DNA of 5,931 nucleotides. Origin: Candidatus Firestoneibacteriota bacterium (GTDB lineage Bacteria > Oederibacteriota > D2-FULL-39-29 > JBDRBU01). Location of the stretch: contig JBDRBU010000125.1 in assembly GCA_043822305.1 (NCBI GenBank), forward strand, positions 1 through 5,931, given 5' to 3'. Made by a program: the position numbers. Numbering within the stretch: the first letter of the stretch is position 1; every line of letters begins with the position of its first letter. This document shows, piece by piece, positions 1 to 5,931 of the stretch.

Positions 1-3000
1 TTACTTTAATTTTACTTTTATCAAAATTAACCATTTGGTAACCTCCTTTAAAAGGTATAAACTTTTTCCTTTACATATAGGTTACCATATTATATACTAT
101 ATATAATAAAAAATATTACATTAAACTTGAGGAAGTCTCTAATTATAATACATAGTAGATTTGGGTCCTGAAGTTATATATAAACCTTCAGGAGGGGCAT
201 CATAGATGGTCGGGCCGCCATCCAATTAAATGATTGGGTGGCGGTTTTTATTTAGGAGGATTATTGAAGAGCGTTAGAATTATAAAAGACAAAATTATAC
301 TGGGTGCAACTATAGGTAATTGTGTTCATGTAGCGGGTATATTAAATTTTTTACAGCTGGCTGAAACTGAAGGCTGTAAAACTATATTTTTAGGCAATGC
401 TATTACTATTAATAATTTAATTATTTCAATAAAGAAGATAAAACCCGATATTGTTGCTATAAGTTATCGGTTGACCCCTGAATCAGCTCAAAAGATATTT
501 AATGAATTAAAAAAGAAGGCAAAAGGACTAAAAACAGAATTTATTTTTGGTGGTACTAAGCCTGTTGCAGAAATAGCAGCAAAAACTGGTATATTTTCTA
601 AAGTTTTTACAGGTGAAGAATCAATTCAGGAGATAAAAAATTATTTAAGAGGAGTTAAAGATGACAAAAAAGGTAAATATTTTGCTGACAATCTTGTAGA
701 CAGAATAAACGCGTTATATCCGTATCCATTGATTAGACATCATTATGGCAGACCTACTTTGAAAGAAACAATAAAGGGCGCAAAGTTAATAGCTGAGTCA
801 AAAGCATTGGATATATTGTCTCTTGGTCCTGATCAAAATGCACAGGAGCATTTTTTTCATCCTGAAGAAATGGATAAGAAACAAGATGGAGCAGGCGGAG
901 TACCGTTAAGAAAACCAGAAGATTTAAAAGCGATATATAAAGCAAGCAGATGTGGAAATTTTCCTTTAATTCGTTGTTATGCAGGAACAACAGATTTGAT
1001 TAAGTGGGCGGAAATGTCAGTTAAAACTATTCATAATGCATGGGGAGCAATACCGTTATGTTGGTACAGTGTTTTAGATGGAAGATCAGAAAGGAGTTTG
1101 GAAGAAACAATAAGAGAAAATCAAGATGCTATAAAATGGTATGCGAGAAGAAAAATGCCAGTGGAGGTAAATGAATCTCATCAATGGAGTTTAAGAGATG
1201 CGCATGACAGTTTAGCAGTGGCCATGGCGTTTCTGGCTGCATATAGTGCCAGGGCATTAGGTGTAAAACATTATGTTTCTCAGTATATGTTTAATACCCC
1301 TCCAGGAACTTCTCCCAAAATGGATTTAGCAAAGATGTTAGCAAAAAAAGAAATGATAGAAAGTTTACAAGATAAAAATTTCAAGGTTTTTACCCAAGTC
1401 AGGGCAGGTTTAAGCAGTTTTTCTTCTGATATGGATATAGCTAAAGGACAGTTGTCTGCTTCTGCTGTATTAAGTTTAACGTTAAAACCTCATATATTAC
1501 ATGTTGTTGGTTTTAGTGAAGGAGATCATGCTGTTAAATCAGAAGAATTAATTGAAAGCTGTAAAATAATTCATGGAGTTTTAAAAAACTCTCTTTATGA
1601 TTTGCCTGATATGAAATTAGACCCTCAAGTTCAAAAAAGAAAAAAGGAATTAATAAAGGAAGCTAAAATTTTGTTAAAAGCAATAGCAAGTTTAAAAATG
1701 ACAGAAAAAGGAGATCCTCTAACAAATCCGAGAATTATTGCAAAAGCTATAAAGTTTGGGCTATTAGATGCTCCGCATTTAAAAGGTAATAAAGTGGCTA
1801 AAGGAGAAATTGCAACAAAAATAGTTAACGGTAAATGTGTTGCAATAAATATATTAACGGGTAAAATATTGAACGAAGCAGAACGTATAAAGAAAATAAT
1901 AGAGGAGAATTAGCTTAAAATGTGCGGAATAGTTGCTATACAAGGAAAACATACGGAAAAAGAATTGCATGAGATGGTCAAGATACTAAGGCATCGTGGA
2001 CCTGATGATAAAGGATTTTTTACAAAGGGAAATATTTCGCTTGGACAAACCCGCCTTTCTATTATAGATGTTGCAGGAGGACATCAGCCAATTTTCAACG
2101 AAGATAAAACCAAATGTATTGTTTTTAACGGGGAAATTTATAATTTTAGAATTTTAAAAGAACAATTAAAAAGAATACATAAGTTTTCTACAAAGACCGA
2201 TACTGAAATTATATTACATCTTTATGAAGAAGATGGTCCTGAATGTATTAAAAAGTTGGACGGAATGTTTACTTTTGCAATTTATGACAACGGTAAATTA
2301 TTTATAGGAAGGGATAGATTAGGGATTAAACCATTGTATTATGGTACCAAGGATAAAACAGTATATTTTGCATCTGAATTGAAAGCACTACTTCATTGTA
2401 GTTATATAACAACTTTTTTACCGGGATATTATTATACTTCCGATAAAGGTTGCGTAAAATATTATGAAATTCCTAAAGGTGTTTCAATCGGGACTTCGGA
2501 AGGAAATATCTTGAAAATGATAGAATCTCTATTAATTAAGGCGGTAGAAAAAAGATTAATGTCAGATGTTCCTGTCGGAGTATTTTTAAGTGGTGGGATT
2601 GATAGCAGTATAATTGCTGCGATTATGAGAAAAAGAATTCCCGGACTTCATTCTTTTTCTGTTGGAATGAAAGGTTCTAAGGATTTAGAGTATGCAAGAG
2701 AAGTCGCAAAGTTCCTTGACTTAAAACATTATGAGCTTGTTTATACTGTAGATGAGATGATTTTTGCATTGCCGGAAATAATTTATTACCTTGAATCATA
2801 TGATGCTCCTTTAGTTAGGAGTGCAATACCGTGTTATTTTGTATCTAAATTAGCACATCAACATGTTAAAGTAGTGTTAACAGGGGAAGGAGCAGATGAG
2901 TTATTCAGCGGTTATAAATACTTAAGTGAAATTAGGGACGAAAAAGCTCTTTTTGACGAACTTTTTAGAATAACTTATAACTTGCATAATACAAACCTTC

Positions 3001-5931
3001 AACGAGTTGATAGACTTACAATGGCTAATTCAGTTGAAGGCAGGGTGCCTTTTCTTGATATAGAATTTCTTACTTATATTTTTAGTATACCTGTTAAATT
3101 AAAATATAGTCATGAAAATCAGGAAAAAAGACTTTTAAGGGAAGCTTTTAAAGAATATTTACCAACCTCAATTGTAAACCGTCCAAAACAAAAGTTTTCA
3201 GATGGAGCAGGCTCGATGGAGGTTTTTAAAAAGATTGCGGAGGATCAAATAACTGATGATGATTTTAGAAAAGAGAATAATAATAAAGCAAGAACCAAGG
3301 AAGAATTGTTTTACTATAGAATTTTCAAAAAATTCTATCCTGATTCAATACTAAATTGTATAGGAAAAACAGAGGTGTTTTAATGGCATATACAAAAGAT
3401 CAAAAACTTCAAAATTTCATTAAAAAAGTATCTGAAAAGGGCAAAACGATAAAATTCTGTGTTTTAGGTGCCGGGCATGGGGGACTTGCTATGGCGGGCC
3501 ATTTGGCAATAATGGGTTTTAGTGTTAATCTTTATAATAGAAGCGATGAAAGATTAAATGCAGTAAGATGGCATGGTGGGATTAAAGTGAAGGGTGAAGT
3601 CGAGGGGTTTGGTAAGATAGACTTGGCTACTTCTGATATAAAAGAAGCAGTAAAAGATGTTGATGTTTTAATGATTGCAGCTCCAGCGACAGCACATCGT
3701 TTTATTGCCGAAGGTGTAGCCCCGCATTTAAAAGACGGACAGATTATAATTTTAAATCCGGGAAGGACCGGCGGAACACTTGAATTTAGGAAAGTATTAA
3801 ATGATATGCAAGTTAAAACATCAGTGATCTTAGGAGAAGCACAAACTTTTATATATGCTTCAAGAGCAGTTTCTCGAGCAGAAGCGTATATTTTTACCAT
3901 TAAGAATGCTGTAGCAATTGCTACATTACCCGCATACTGGATTCCGGATGTTCTTTCCGTTTTAAAACAAGCATATCCGCAGTTTGTTGCAGGTGATAAT
4001 ATTCTAAAAACAAGCCTTGATAATGTTGGTGCTGTATTTCATCCTGCTTTAACTATTCTTAATGCGGGATGGATTGAAGAAACACACGGGAATTTTGATT
4101 ATTATTTACAGGGGGTTAGTCCTTCTGTTTCCAAAATATTGGAAGATATTGATAAGGAAAGAATATTAGTAGCTGAAAAATTAGGGATTAGAGTTCCTAC
4201 TGCAAGGGAATGGCTTTACTTGACTTATGATTCGGTAGGTAAAGATTTACATGAAGCAATACATGATACACCGGGTTATAGAGGTATAAAAGCACCAGAT
4301 AATATTAATCACAGATACATTTTCGAAGATGTTCCAATGAGTTTGGTGCCAATATCCTCAATAGGAGATATGTTAGGAGTTCCGACTCCAACAATAAAAT
4401 CTATTATATATTTTGCTTCTATTATGCATGGAGTTAATTACTGTAAAGAAGGAAGGACAGTAGAGAAGTTAGGGATAGCGGGATTAACTGTAAAAGAAAT
4501 AAGGCAGTTAGTTGTTGGAATAGAGTAAAAAAAGGAGGAAAAAGTTATGAATATACAATTAACAGAGTTTAATTTATTATGGGAAAAGTTAGTTGAATAT
4601 TTTCCAAAAGTTGCAATAGGCTTAATTCTTTTCAGTATGGGTTTAGTTTTAGCAATTTTTTTAAGATTACTTGTTACAAAGTTGCTTGAATTGATAAGAT
4701 TTAATACTTTAAGCGATAAAACTGGAGTTTCAGAATTCTTAAGAAAAGGTCAGATTAATTATACACCTTCAAAACTTATAGGAAATATAATATTTTGGGC
4801 AATAATTATATTAATATTGTTTTTTATTGCAGATATATCAGGTATAAAGATATTAGGTCCTATGGTTGAAAAGATCGCAAATAATTTTCCAAACATTTTT
4901 GGTACAGTTATAACTTTAATTATTGGGAGTTTAATTGTAATATTTATTGGCAACTTTGTTCAGACAATAGCAAATAATGCTGCTTTTCCGCATGCTAATC
5001 TTTTATCCAGGGCAATAAAGTGGATAGGTATAATATTTGTTTTAATTCTTTCATTTGAAAATTTCAATATTGGATCTAAAACACTAGGGTCAACATTTCT
5101 TATAATTTTGGCAGCAATAGCTTTTGGAATTTCACTGGCATTTGGTATTGGCTGTAAAGACATTGCAAAAGATATAATGGAAAAATTTATACGAAATCTT
5201 GAGGAAAAAAGCAAAAAAGGACCTAAAGGTCCTGATTTAGAAGGTTAATCATAAAGGAGAAAAATGGCTGAATATATCCTTTTAGGGATAATGTTTGCAA
5301 TAGCGGTTGTTATGTTTATTGCCATAAAAAGAAGCGAGAAAAAGTAAAACACAAATATTATCTTGTAAAAAAGGGGCATAATCCATAATGGTTATATGGC
5401 TATTAGTACTATTATTATCAATCTTTATCCTTCCATTTTTATATAAAAAGATAGAAAAAGAATTAGAAATATTTCTTTTTTTAATGGGAATTCTTTCTCT
5501 AACTATTACTTCTCAATGGAGCTTGCATTTAATACAAGAAAGCCTAATAGAGCCAATAAAAATTACTTTAACAGTTTTTATAGCAGGAATATTATTCAAA
5601 CTAGTTCAAAAACCACTTGACGAGAATCTAAATATTATAGTTAAAAAATTAGGAATGAAATATTTTATATTTTTACTTGTGGCGGGCTTAGGATTATTTT
5701 CGAGTGTAATAACTGCAATAATATCGGCTTTAATCTTAGTCGAAATAATAAGTTGGTACCGTCCTGAATCTTTGACCTACACATCTTAACCAATTCAAGC
5801 CCTCTTTCTATTGTAGCATATCTCATTTTTTTCAAATTGTCAAGAACTTTTTTCTTTTTCTTTTTTACTTTTTTTGTTTTTATTAGCCATCCTTACTAAA
5901 ATTTGCCCTCAAATTGCCCTTTAAACCAACG

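Follow-up and report, generated by a model that had tools for sequence, protein, structure and literature searches.

A predicted single-chain B12 isomerase and an opine dehydrogenase share an operon behind an nhaA-I riboswitch

Glutamate mutase of Clostridium cochlearium (GlmS/GlmE, EC 5.4.99.1; structures 1cb7, 1i9c, and 6h9e) consists of two subunits that provide a TIM barrel and a B12-binding Rossmann domain with a His ligand in a DxHxxG motif, and its partner is methylaspartase. The barrel superfamily is shared by lysine 5,6-aminomutase (KamDE) and ornithine 4,5-aminomutase (OraSE), which require PLP and shift an amino group. In 2009, Zhang, Rodionov, Gelfand, and Gladyshev predicted a further B12-dependent family, always beside octopine dehydrogenase (BMC Genomics; PMC2667541). 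The available excerpt of that paper covers 11 genomes from four phyla and does not give a GlmE fold assignment, regulation, or function. Among RNA regulators, terminator-type nhaA-I RNAs turn transcription on upon ion binding (White et al., Sci Rep 2022, PMC9646797). Another report, available in part, describes Na+ and c-di-AMP riboswitches that control the osmolyte genes ablA and eam, and cell-wall genes that are also under c-di-AMP riboswitches (White et al. 2022, PMC9337991).

The window analyzed here (the whole stretch of 5,931 nt) is one contig of a 2.15-Mb, 96.8%-complete Candidatus Firestoneibacteriota genome. Five plus-strand genes lie 3′ of a riboswitch (Table 1). The RF03057 match, the terminator, and the common strand of the genes confirmed the survey's finding of a riboswitch followed by a mutase-led operon with AsnB and opine dehydrogenase genes. 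Both contig ends are repeats. In blastn comparisons, at least 10 further contigs of this genome end in copies of positions 1 to approximately 140 (98 to 100% identity); for positions 5753 to 5892, copies with 100% identity terminate contigs C116 and C91, and C63 contains a stretch with 83% identity. Near position 44, a minus-strand open reading frame (ORF) starts and leaves the contig.

Table 1. Features of the window
Feature	Position	Strand	Basis or remark
Multi-copy repeat end, probable insertion-sequence end	1..140		blastn against same genome
nhaA-I (Li+-I/Na+-II class) riboswitch aptamer	163..223	+	RF03057
Intrinsic terminator (predicted)	212..253	+	Minimum-free-energy fold; terminator scan match 212-247
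Single-chain B12 enzyme, 549 aa	264..1913	+	TTG start; AGGAGG at 254-259
Glutamine-dependent asparagine-synthetase-B-type amidotransferase, 487 aa, Cys2 present	1920..3383	+	NF006949, Pfam
Opine dehydrogenase, 381 aa	3383..4528	+	PDB 1bg6 match, PF02317
233-aa membrane protein, two PF05552 "mechanosensitive channel conserved TM helix" copies	4547..5248	+	Pfam
27-codon hydrophobic ORF, unverified, own AAAGGAG ribosome-binding site	5264..5347	+	Sequence reading
5′ third of DUF1646 gene (ORF 5388-5789)	5388..5752	+	PF07854
Second repeat family, end of one copy	5753..5931		blastn; terminates contig, interrupts DUF1646 gene

The first gene encodes a cobalamin-binding Rossmann domain (approximately residues 10 to 130; nt 291 to 653) followed by a GlmE-like TIM barrel (residues 139 to 541; nt 678 to 1886). 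B12-binding alone was matched in Pfam, with 31.7 bits at a cut-off of 32.1 (35 bits in a six-frame genome search), and the protein scored below the cut-off of every mutase family. In its C20-x-H22-x-x-G25 motif (nt 321 to 338), H22 is aligned to the cobalt-binding His in the DxHxxG motif of corrinoid proteins, and Cys takes the place of Asp; distant subfamilies retain the canonical DxHxxG. The C-V-H-V-x-G loop had been described as invariant, but C20 and H22 are conserved at 90% or more, and one relative (P0136) lacks the motif. An AF2 model based on 23 sequences (pLDDT 91.4, pTM 0.82) was compared to the PDB with Foldseek, which ranked 6h9e_B (E = 5.6e-16) and 1cb7_B (E = 1e-15; TM score 0.67 by target, 456 columns) ahead of ornithine and lysine aminomutases, HCM, and MCM. 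VIA superposed the model on 1cb7_B with Z 32.2 and a root mean square deviation of 3.0 Å over 376 residues (16% identity), with lower scores for lysine 5,6-aminomutase (8t0v_A, Z 29.7) and ornithine 4,5-aminomutase (3kow_B, Z 26.5). As the survey had stated, the modeled structure supports a B12-binding Rossmann domain fused to an adenosylcobalamin-isomerase-type TIM barrel that is nearest to GlmE. At the profile level, hhalign related the protein to GlmE with an E value of 1.7e-4 over 324 columns (probability 49%). Unlike GlmS/GlmE, the enzyme is a single chain with an N-terminal B12 domain and has opine dehydrogenase and AsnB as partners; its likeness to KamDE and OraSE is in the barrel fold.

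A search of representative sequences gave 767, 457, and 149 matches at E ≤ 1e-3, 1e-10, and 1e-30, reproducing the earlier figures of 767 and 149. The family, previously announced as new, is not: the available excerpt of PMC2667541 predicts it, with a distantly related B12-binding domain at the N terminus, a TIM barrel (predicted), an adjoining octopine/nopaline dehydrogenase gene (pfam02317), and asparagine synthase and D-Ala-D-Ala ligase close by, features that all recur in the present data, and some members pass Pfam Met_asp_mut_E (P0134, 27.5 against 26.6). Beyond that excerpt, the present analysis contributes riboswitch control, a comparison with GlmE residue by residue, and a count of at least 586 loci at species level. 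Sister proteins carry a fused GlmL/MutL family, and one relative is a mutase-ATP-grasp fusion. The genome of the window encodes an adenosyltransferase of the CobA type and has a cobalamin riboswitch; neither GlmL/MutL nor a PduO-type adenosyltransferase was found in this 96.8%-complete assembly. A literature search returned no experiment on any family member.

The description of the enzyme as glutamate-mutase-like stands for the fold, but not clearly for the active site. In a profile alignment, H160, Q194, and Y239 occupy the positions of three GlmE residues that we take to be its substrate arginines; at two of these positions (Q194 and Y239), arginines occur two residues earlier on two strands. 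GlmE Glu171, whose role we likewise presume, lies in an insertion and has no partner. Other residues do align: D183/D190 with D89/D96, G241-T242-x-D244 with G151-T152-P153-D154, and E419 with Glu330. These motifs and the top structural rank of GlmE would suit an orthodox single-chain glutamate mutase (EC 5.4.99.1), which would convert L-glutamate to (2S,3S)-3-methylaspartate for amidation by AsnB and condensation with pyruvate by the opine dehydrogenase. The score of AsnB is that of a true asparagine synthase B, and 3-methylaspartate, an aspartate analogue, might be its substrate. We nevertheless consider this activity unlikely, because none of the three aligned positions has kept its substrate arginine; identity with GlmE is as low as 16%, and Tepidanaerobacter has a member of the present family in addition to a true GlmE (778 bits), which argues for separate jobs. 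Since the Z score of lysine 5,6-aminomutase nearly equals that of GlmE, the rearrangement may differ in type from that of GlmE.

The AsnB-type protein matched NF006949 with 579.7 bits (cut-off 499) as well as Pfam Asn_synthase and GATase_7; a second copy, at 39% identity, is encoded elsewhere in the genome. In the operon, the AsnB stop codon overlaps the opine dehydrogenase start (TAATG). The dehydrogenase resembles Arthrobacter N-(1-D-carboxyethyl)-L-norvaline dehydrogenase (CENDH; 1bg6) over its whole length (E = 4.8e-82, 354 residues; PF02317, 171 bits) and keeps the catalytic positions that are His202, Arg292, and Asp297 in 1bg6; unlike that of CENDH, its gene is tied to that of a B12 enzyme. 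To call the 233-aa protein MscS-like, as before, was an overstatement: PF05552 (38.4 bits) is its sole Pfam match, the MscS beta-domain is absent, and NCBIfam msc reached 54.8 bits at a cut-off of 100. It also occurs 3′ of the opine dehydrogenase gene in three related loci (L002, L039, and L041). For the 27-codon ORF, tblastn gave no convincing relative. The last gene does match DUF1646 (PF07854, 96.4 bits, profile positions 3 to 132 of 347); it is not intact, being interrupted by the repeat, and another contig carries a complete copy of 359 aa.

The aptamer, the only nhaA-I copy in the genome, matched RF03057 in full (model positions 1 to 55; E = 5.4e-6), its 42 bits exceeding the gathering score of 37. 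It comprises P1 (approximately 166 to 193), P2 (205 to 210 with 217 to 222), and the conserved CGGGCC loop (211 to 216). In nine nhaA-I sequences of the phylum, both sides are altered in four of the six P2 pairs. The core of the terminator stem (215 to 223 with 236 to 244) takes up the P2 loop and 3′ arm and is followed by a T-run (245 to 253). The minimum-free-energy fold of positions 157 to 253 consists of P1 and a hairpin of 16 pairs (−39 kcal/mol, z −5.2; equal stability in 0 of 200 shuffles). Judged from the sequence, the ligand-free leader folds into P1 and a strong terminator built with the P2 arm and the conserved loop, and the terminator is the predicted expression platform of an ON switch that would act by antitermination. 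ON logic and a terminator overlapping P2 are shared with the Na+-II representative of D. propionicus (PMC9646797). Unlike the transporter-controlling nhaA-I RNAs of that report, the window RNA precedes enzyme genes.

Relatives are encoded in at least 586 of the related loci, for which 599 pattern matches were listed. ORF clustering of the best 80 and the window recovered the mutase in 80 of 81 loci. A same-strand opine dehydrogenase ORF lay within four genes in 71/80 and directly upstream in 66/80, with a median of 49 nt between its stop and the mutase Cys codon (65 of the 66 cases). The reported conservation of the pair in hundreds of genomes is supported. AsnB-like ORFs were also recovered, but in fewer loci than stated before (33/80 instead of 40/81), and directly downstream in 30/80. 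Recurrent neighbors include MscS, NhaA, CLC, CitMHS, and MarC, a further link of the module to salt. Within the phylum, 9 of 99 genomes have an nhaA-I RNA, one each. It precedes this mutase in two (the window and L100, which is 76% identical and has a terminator) and a trehalose-6-phosphate synthase family gene (Glyco_transf_20) in six; the ninth locus is cut off. A newly observed feature of the phylum is that this class fronts either the mutase operon or trehalose-6-phosphate synthase. In L002, the closest relative locus, which has the same gene order, and in L119, no riboswitch was found even at E ≤ 1. The c-di-AMP riboswitches noted earlier upstream of relatives were recovered on the same strand in 9/9 Bacillota loci with Rfam (99 to 117 bits), and our own c-di-AMP model, run on 81 sources, found them in front of the module in 16 of the 80 related loci, a new observation, and not in the other 64.

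The trehalose parallel and the c-di-AMP riboswitches support a salt-induced solute pathway. In the available part of PMC9337991, amino-acid-isomerizing radical enzymes are likewise under Na+ and/or c-di-AMP riboswitches and produce osmolytes; those enzymes are radical-SAM/PLP aminomutases of a different fold with known products. Our preferred reading, to which we give about an even chance, is a salt-induced biosynthetic operon in which a GlmE-type B12 mutase, the opine dehydrogenase, and AsnB make a putative osmolyte or K+ counter-ion. We infer the radical chemistry, order of steps, substrate, product, and physiological ligand as follows. Li+ or Na+ would stabilize P2 and block the terminator, so that RNA polymerase enters the five tightly packed genes. 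The mutase would hold cobalamin base-off/His-on via His22, and its barrel would use a 5′-deoxyadenosyl radical for a carbon-skeleton rearrangement, with an acidic compound of the amino-acid type as the substrate. This may be larger than free glutamate or seated otherwise, our preferred guess being an N-(1-carboxyalkyl) glutamate derivative. In an NAD(P)H-dependent reaction that joins an amino acid and a 2-oxo acid by reductive condensation, the dehydrogenase would make or consume this secondary amine, and AsnB would convert one carboxylate to an amide with glutamine. The product would accumulate, and the two membrane proteins may handle ions or solute release.

Catabolic roles are known for GlmE and for the ornithine and lysine aminomutases. 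The module could, by analogy with clostridial glutamate fermentation, run the dehydrogenase oxidatively and feed an opine-like or acidic amino acid into fermentation. Most carriers are anaerobic fermenters by their record titles, and neighbors include PmbA/TldD peptidase pairs, an M20 peptidase, and the DcuC carrier. However, no lyase, CoA-transferase, or further fermentation gene recurs beside the pair, the commonest partners are ATP-consuming amide-forming enzymes (AsnB, ATP-grasp), and induction by Na+/Li+ and low c-di-AMP, together with the OtsA parallel, suits synthesis better; we regard a catabolic role as quite unlikely.

The nhaA-I assignment itself holds, but the name in Rfam does not settle the ligand class. 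The window RNA combines the CGGGCC loop with a preceding U, as in most Li+-I riboswitches (C in the Na+-II variant), and with a terminator platform, which is tied to the Na+-sensing variants (PMC9646797). Terminator-type nhaA-I RNAs in that report come from Deltaproteobacteria only and have the C, whereas the window RNA is from Firestoneibacteriota. Because of this U, the signal could be Li+ rather than general salt, and the Rfam Na+-I model had no match anywhere in the genome. A response specific to lithium toxicity, with enzymes that substitute for or shield a process sensitive to Li+, is nonetheless very unlikely in our estimation: Li+, Na+, and NH4+ all elicited a response from the C-to-U mutant of the Na+-II RNA, the platform is a hallmark of Na+-responsive variants, and trehalose-linked representatives may sense Na+ (PMC9646797); furthermore, the module is under c-di-AMP control in other genomes. 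Least probable is a corrinoid-dependent methyltransferase or other non-isomerase with a barrel substrate domain, as the top sequence matches of the B12 domain (MtgC, MttC, 4jgi), "methionine synthase" annotations of relatives, and the Asp-to-Cys exchange might suggest, since the barrel scores Z 20 to 32 with adenosylcobalamin isomerases and far lower with MetH barrels (Foldseek TM 0.24 to 0.31), no helical cap precedes the Rossmann domain, in sister proteins the fusion partner is the mutase accessory family MutL, and methyl-donor or activation genes do not recur nearby.

If the reading as a salt-induced biosynthetic operon is correct, the pathway would yield a small molecule that shields anaerobic bacteria from salt stress under the control of a Li+/Na+ RNA switch.

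The B12 enzyme encoded by the first gene of the window matched a single Pfam family, B12-binding (PF02310), at 31.7 bits, 0.4 below the cut-off of 32.1; in a six-frame search of the genome, the domain reached 35 bits. In pairwise alignments, His22 coincided with the His of DIHSIG (7xcn_M) and of DLHDIG (4jgi_A), both from corrinoid proteins. The Asp of this fingerprint is exchanged for Cys20, and S67-x-x-L70 and G96-G97 are present. The C-V-H-V-x-G loop had been described as invariant; it is highly conserved, with C20, H22, and G25 each kept in at least 90% of a 23-sequence family alignment, but not invariant. 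The canonical D-x-H-x-x-G motif is retained in distant subfamilies, and the Cys is common to the MutL-fused relatives. Judged by these alignments and by the subfamily split, H22 is a credible axial ligand and the Asp-to-Cys exchange a family trait. One full-length member, P0136, lacks the Cys-x-His loop (DPKYTNE instead) and may be a cobalamin-free or decayed copy. The genome (2.15 Mb in 125 contigs, of which the window is one entire contig) is able to supply the cofactor, as it encodes a CobA/BtuR-type adenosyltransferase (194.7 bits) and carries a cobalamin riboswitch. Neither a PduO-type adenosyltransferase nor GlmL/MutL (PF13941) was detected in this 96.8%-complete assembly.

An AlphaFold2 model based on the 23-sequence alignment reached a pLDDT of 91.4 and a pTM of 0.82. 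Foldseek placed GlmE, the catalytic subunit of glutamate mutase, on top (6h9e_B, E = 5.6e-16; 1cb7_B, E = 1e-15), followed by ornithine and lysine aminomutases, 2-hydroxyisobutyryl-CoA mutase, and methylmalonyl-CoA mutase. VIA-align confirmed that the barrel superposes on GlmE, as the survey had proposed: residues 139 to 541 of the model were matched to 43 to 443 of 1cb7_B with Z = 32.2 and an rmsd of 3.0 Å over 376 residues, compared to Z scores of 29.7 for lysine 5,6-aminomutase, 26.5 for ornithine 4,5-aminomutase, and 21.6 for methylmalonyl-CoA mutase. The GlmE family model PF06368 (Met_asp_mut_E) was absent from the window protein at E ≤ 0.1 and from its genome at E ≤ 0.001, and a sequence-profile search of the PDB retrieved B12-binding domains alone and not the GlmE barrel. 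Among relatives, P0134 passed the PF06368 cut-off of 26.6 with 27.5 bits and P0125 stayed below it with 25.1 bits; in Atlas clusters of the family, 13 to 26% of the members carry PF06368. A profile-profile comparison with seven true GlmE sequences gave E = 1.7e-4 over 324 columns at a probability of only 49%. A sister subfamily (P0152, P0153, and P0158; barrel identity of 36 to 42%) is fused to MutL/GlmL (PF13941), the accessory family of GlmE, in chains of 826 to 1,266 aa. Homology beyond the shared fold is thus supported by the profile-profile match, by P0134 passing the Pfam cut-off, and by the MutL fusions. More distant subfamilies of approximately 570 to 640 aa (P0169, P0175, P0184, P0186, P0191, P0208, and P0224; 27 to 32% identity) keep DxHxxG, and the linker that joins their B12 domain to the barrel is longer. 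Barrel residues Q194, Y239, D272, R274, E301, R311, D315, K357, R380, H413, and E419 are invariant throughout the superfamily. A search of Bacteroidota genomes (401 sampled, E ≤ 1e-90) did not recover the 620-aa subfamily represented by P0208; in five carrier genomes, the P0208 query matched solely the known family.

The active site was compared with GlmE residue by residue using an hhalign profile alignment (49% probability, E = 1.7e-4), which is not a residue-level superposition; the positions of Arg66, Arg100, Arg149, Glu171, Lys326, and Glu330 were confirmed on the 1cb7_B sequence. We take Arg66, Arg100, and Arg149 to be the substrate-binding residues of GlmE and Glu171 to be its base, and hhalign aligned none of them with an identical residue of the window protein. 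D89 and D96 of GlmE fall on the invariant D183 and D190, thereby placing Arg100 on Q194, and G151-T152-P153-D154 falls on G241-T242-T243-D244, thereby placing Arg149 on the invariant Y239; both placements are anchored by these conserved flanking motifs. The assignment of Arg66 to H160 is less certain, since the alignment begins at G162/G68. Glu171 lies in an insertion and has no aligned partner. Two near-invariant arginines, R158 and R237, occupy the same two strands two residues earlier, i.e., one rung deeper on the same face, and Glu330 corresponds to the nearly invariant E419. These sequence comparisons suggest that the apparatus for radical chemistry has been kept; an acidic substrate is still probable, but one held in another way than glutamate in GlmE. 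It is possible that the protein is an orthodox glutamate mutase; the fold is closest to GlmE, and the arginines are displaced. A non-radical B12 protein is a possibility as well. Tepidanaerobacter encodes both a true GlmE (locus L082, G003:C158; 778 bits) and a c-di-AMP-controlled member of the present family (L047), which suggests that the two have different functions. The canonical GlmE gene of L082 is flanked by ORFs of 420 and 449 aa.

All features of interest in the window lie on the plus strand.

Features of the proposed riboswitch-controlled operon in the window
Feature	Position (nt)	Strand	Remarks
nhaA-I riboswitch	163-223	+	RF03057, 42 bits vs gathering cut-off 37, E = 5.4e-6, model positions 1-55 (full)
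Terminator hairpin	212-247	+	16 pairs; 215-223 pairs with 236-244, followed by T-run; MFE fold and terminator scan
B12 enzyme gene	264 (start)	+	TTG start; AGGAGG at 254-259; 549 codons
AsnB gene	1920-3383	+	starts six bases past the stop of the B12 enzyme gene
Opine dehydrogenase gene	3383-4528	+	start overlaps the AsnB stop as TAATG
TM-protein gene	4547-5248	+	
27-codon hydrophobic ORF	5264-5347	+	good ribosome-binding site; between TM-protein gene and DUF1646 fragment
DUF1646 fragment gene	5388-5789	+	profile positions 3-132 of 347

The second gene satisfied the NCBI equivalog model for asparagine synthase B (NF006949) with 579.7 bits against a cut-off of 499 and retains the N-terminal Cys nucleophile (the sequence begins MCGI). 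This agrees with the AsnB-like amidotransferase named by the survey. A second, 39%-identical AsnB copy resides elsewhere in the genome, which suggests a role of the first that is dedicated to the operon. The third gene product aligned over its entire length with the Arthrobacter N-(1-D-carboxyethyl)-L-norvaline dehydrogenase 1bg6 (E = 4.8e-82), matched PF02317 at 171 bits, and contains the NAD(P) Rossmann domain, in agreement with the proposed opine dehydrogenase. His202, Arg292, and Asp297 of 1bg6, presumably the catalytic His/Arg/Asp, are kept in the pairwise alignment. The description of the fourth gene product as MscS-like was too strong: its sole Pfam match is the PF05552 TM helix, neither the MS_channel β-domain (PF00924) nor TM3 was found, and it scored 54.8 bits against NF033912, under the cut-off of 100. 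Complete MscS proteins do exist in related loci, where they form a cluster of 10. For the 27-codon ORF, no convincing relative was detected.

Both ends of the contig are repeats. Positions 1 to approximately 140, in which a minus-strand ORF begins near position 44, recur as 98 to 100% identical copies at the ends of at least 10 other contigs. Positions 5753 to 5892 recur at the ends of two contigs and, with 83% identity, inside a third; on its minus strand, this second repeat (5753 to 5931) has a TTGACA-17-TATGCT hexamer pair that faces outward (5843 to 5815). The contig is thus bounded by two multi-copy repeat families, the second of which interrupts the DUF1646 gene. Accordingly, the DUF1646 match reported by the survey stands, but for a fragment covering only part of the profile; a complete 359-aa copy is present on a different contig. 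We considered whether the module is a horizontally acquired island. The repeats on both flanks and the restriction of the family to 4 of 99 genomes in the phylum would fit this explanation; however, window and genome have the same GC content (31.8% and 31.6%).

The operon is preceded by an nhaA-I riboswitch scoring above its gathering cut-off, in line with the survey's finding. No second copy exists in the genome, and Rfam finds no other RNA in the window. P1, P2, and the conserved loop are all present, and four of the six P2 pairs covary. The minimum free energy fold of positions 157 to 253 consists of P1 and the 16-pair terminator hairpin (-39 kcal/mol, z = -5.2; 0 of 200 shuffles equally stable), and this hairpin takes up the loop and the 3′ arm of P2. 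Because the hairpin wins in this fold, transcription would be terminated by default. A ligand that stabilizes P2 would prevent terminator formation and permit read-through into the operon. The terminator scan found no further terminator-like site on the plus strand of the window. Promoter-like hexamers were as frequent as in shuffled sequences (28 versus 27.6 expected), and no promoter was assigned.

Within the phylum, nhaA-I RNAs were found in 9 of 99 genomes, once in each. The RNA precedes the mutase in two of them, the window and the locus L100/L118 (76% identical, terminator included), and a Glyco_transf_20 gene (trehalose-6-phosphate synthase family) in six (L098, L099, L101, L103, L104, and L105); the ninth locus is cut off. 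The RNA lies at about 1501 to 1560 in each of these six, and in L103 to L105 the Glyco_transf_20 domain follows an N-terminal extension of approximately 270 residues with a TM/Cache-like region. The genome of the window has no Glyco_transf_20 gene. Terminator hairpins were recognized by eye in the RNAs of at least three relatives (L099, L100, and L101), that of the window being confirmed by fold and scan. Passages of White et al. (2022, PMC9646797) place nhaA-I RNAs with a terminator platform only in Deltaproteobacteria, ahead of unknown genes. Given the terminators at the window, L099, L100, and L101, RNAs of this type are not limited to Deltaproteobacteria. According to the same passages, a tested Na+-II representative responds to Na+ and carries a C where most nhaA-I RNAs carry a U; mutation of this C to U yields an RNA that answers to Li+, Na+, and NH4+. 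The window RNA resembles the Na+-II variant in its terminator platform but differs from it in having U210 instead of C directly before the CGGGCC loop; this U is found in all nine nhaA-I RNAs of the phylum. The Na+-I model RF03071 had no match in the genome. A lithium-specific response is thus among the possible readings of the leader, next to the suggestion in these parts of White et al. (PMC9646797) that trehalose-linked nhaA-I representatives are possible Na+ sensors.

Other lineages use a different RNA. Rfam detected c-di-AMP riboswitches at gathering scores in all nine Bacillota loci (99 to 117 bits), upstream and on the same strand, and in none of 18 other loci, many of which have no upstream DNA. 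A covariance model built from the nine hits was positive in 16 of 81 sources, always upstream on the same strand (the original nine, five further Bacillota or unclassified loci, and two from Armatimonadota), bearing out the survey's report of c-di-AMP riboswitches in relatives. No riboswitch was found at E ≤ 1 in L002, L119, L122, L039, or L041, the first of which is the Firestonebacteria sister locus that had been noted to lack one. As stated in passages of a second study (White et al. 2022, PMC9337991), Na+ and c-di-AMP riboswitches jointly control the osmolyte genes ablA and eam, with c-di-AMP acting as an OFF signal for "no osmotic distress".

The family is large. More than 5,335 protein clusters matched at E ≤ 1e-3 among 8,000 candidates scored, and a library clustered at 50% identity returned 767, 457, and 149 matches at E ≤ 1e-3, 1e-10, and 1e-30, respectively. 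The best 120 clusters are 521 to 573 aa in length and 59 to 100% identical; those with a name are labeled "methionine synthase", "cobalamin B12-binding domain-containing", "methylmalonyl-CoA mutase cobalamin-binding subunit", or "hypothetical". A single-protein scan of genome contigs retrieved no relative; an alignment-based scan yielded at least 586 loci (586 of 599 pattern matches listed; one genome per species). The best 80 of these, from Bacteroidota, Ignavibacteriota, Bacillota, Aminicenantes, Armatimonadota, Nitrospirota, Omnitrophota, Firestonebacteria, and others, were analyzed together with the window by our own ORF calls (888 ORFs) and blastp clustering. The mutase ORF was recovered in 80 of the 81 sources, L013 having no ORF in the cluster. 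In 71 of the 80 loci, an opine dehydrogenase gene is found no more than four genes away on the same strand, and in 66 it is the immediate upstream neighbor, so that the proposed wide conservation of the pair holds among the best 80 of at least 586 family loci. The median distance from the dehydrogenase stop codon to the mutase Cys codon was 49 nt (65 of the 66 loci); the two genes therefore lie end to end or overlap. An AsnB-like gene is present in 33 of the 80 loci, directly downstream in 30. The window differs from the prevailing arrangement in that AsnB separates the mutase from the dehydrogenase; this order (mutase, AsnB, dehydrogenase, TM protein) is shared with L002, L039, and L041, which form one clade with the window in the mutase tree (97 SH-aLRT), L002 being its sister (99).

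Further neighbors identified by Pfam include MarC (7 loci), PmbA/TldD pairs (6), Ddl-type ATP-grasp ligases on the same strand (5), full MscS, a CLC channel, CitMHS, NhaA (2), and a GT2-HAD fusion (3). The last, a GT2/HAD-phosphatase fusion, stands beside the module in three Bacteroidales loci (L006, L010, and L017), and we infer a resemblance of this domain pair to glycoside-type osmolyte synthases. The 863-aa relative P0134 carries a glutathione-synthetase/RimK-type ATP-grasp domain at its C-terminus, a Rosetta-stone fusion that ties the mutase to an amide-forming ligase. In one further genome of the phylum (L120/L122, G051:C130), the mutase is split into two same-strand pieces (profile positions 6 to 218 and 246 to 548), which points to a frameshift or break in the gene or to an error of assembly.

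Three lines of evidence point jointly to a pathway that is induced by salt and synthesizes a small solute: two unrelated ionic or osmotic RNA sensors control the module in different lineages, the nhaA-I class fronts a textbook osmolyte gene in relatives, and ion channels and antiporters recur around the module. A catabolic role of the same genes is possible. In the biosynthetic pathway, the dehydrogenase-mutase pair would form the core, and a third step would frequently be provided by an enzyme that forms amides, either of the AsnB type or an ATP-grasp ligase, which in one case is fused to the mutase. Our guess at the mutase substrate is an opine-type compound, since the enzyme is closely coupled to the dehydrogenase and its arginines are displaced. 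The adenosylcobalamin mutase, with its displaced arginine pair and Cys-x-His cobalt loop, would rearrange a secondary amine, e.g., N-(1-carboxyethyl)glutamate, and not a free amino acid. The full proposal, which we put forward as rather doubtful, is that the mutase rearranges an opine and the product is then amidated, which would yield a salt-stress solute not described so far, through the first B12-radical reaction known from the synthesis of osmolytes. If true, hundreds of anaerobic species from more than ten phyla would have a compatible solute or K+ counter-ion in common, switched on by Na+/Li+ or low c-di-AMP.

The family had been presented as new by the survey; however, passages of Zhang et al. 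(2009, PMC2667541) already predict it and print its ties to octopine dehydrogenase, asparagine synthase, and D-Ala-D-Ala ligase. The distant N-terminal B12 domain, the adjacency to pfam02317, and the nearby AsnB or Ddl described there are all found here. In the open-access literature (subscription journals and bioRxiv supplements being outside its scope), we found no later paper on the family, nothing joining opine dehydrogenase to glutamate mutase, nothing relevant with riboswitches, and nothing relevant on adenosylcobalamin mutases in compatible-solute synthesis. New here are the parallel to OtsA, which stands behind the same class of riboswitch in other genomes, the departure from GlmE at the level of single residues, the division of the superfamily into DxHxxG and CxHxxG members, and the state of the locus, which is enclosed by repeats and partly broken. 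To our knowledge, the known adenosylcobalamin isomerases number only about a dozen, and every one of them has brought new radical chemistry. With at least 586 loci at the species level and more than 5,000 clusters, the present family is a large one; it is highly conserved (approximately 60% identity across phyla) and has been flagged since 2009. The extension of terminator-type nhaA-I RNAs to lineages other than Deltaproteobacteria and to operons of enzymes bears on Li+ versus Na+ sensing, and the dual riboswitch control together with the trehalose parallel provides a concrete, testable hypothesis for the role of this family and for a solute of anaerobes.
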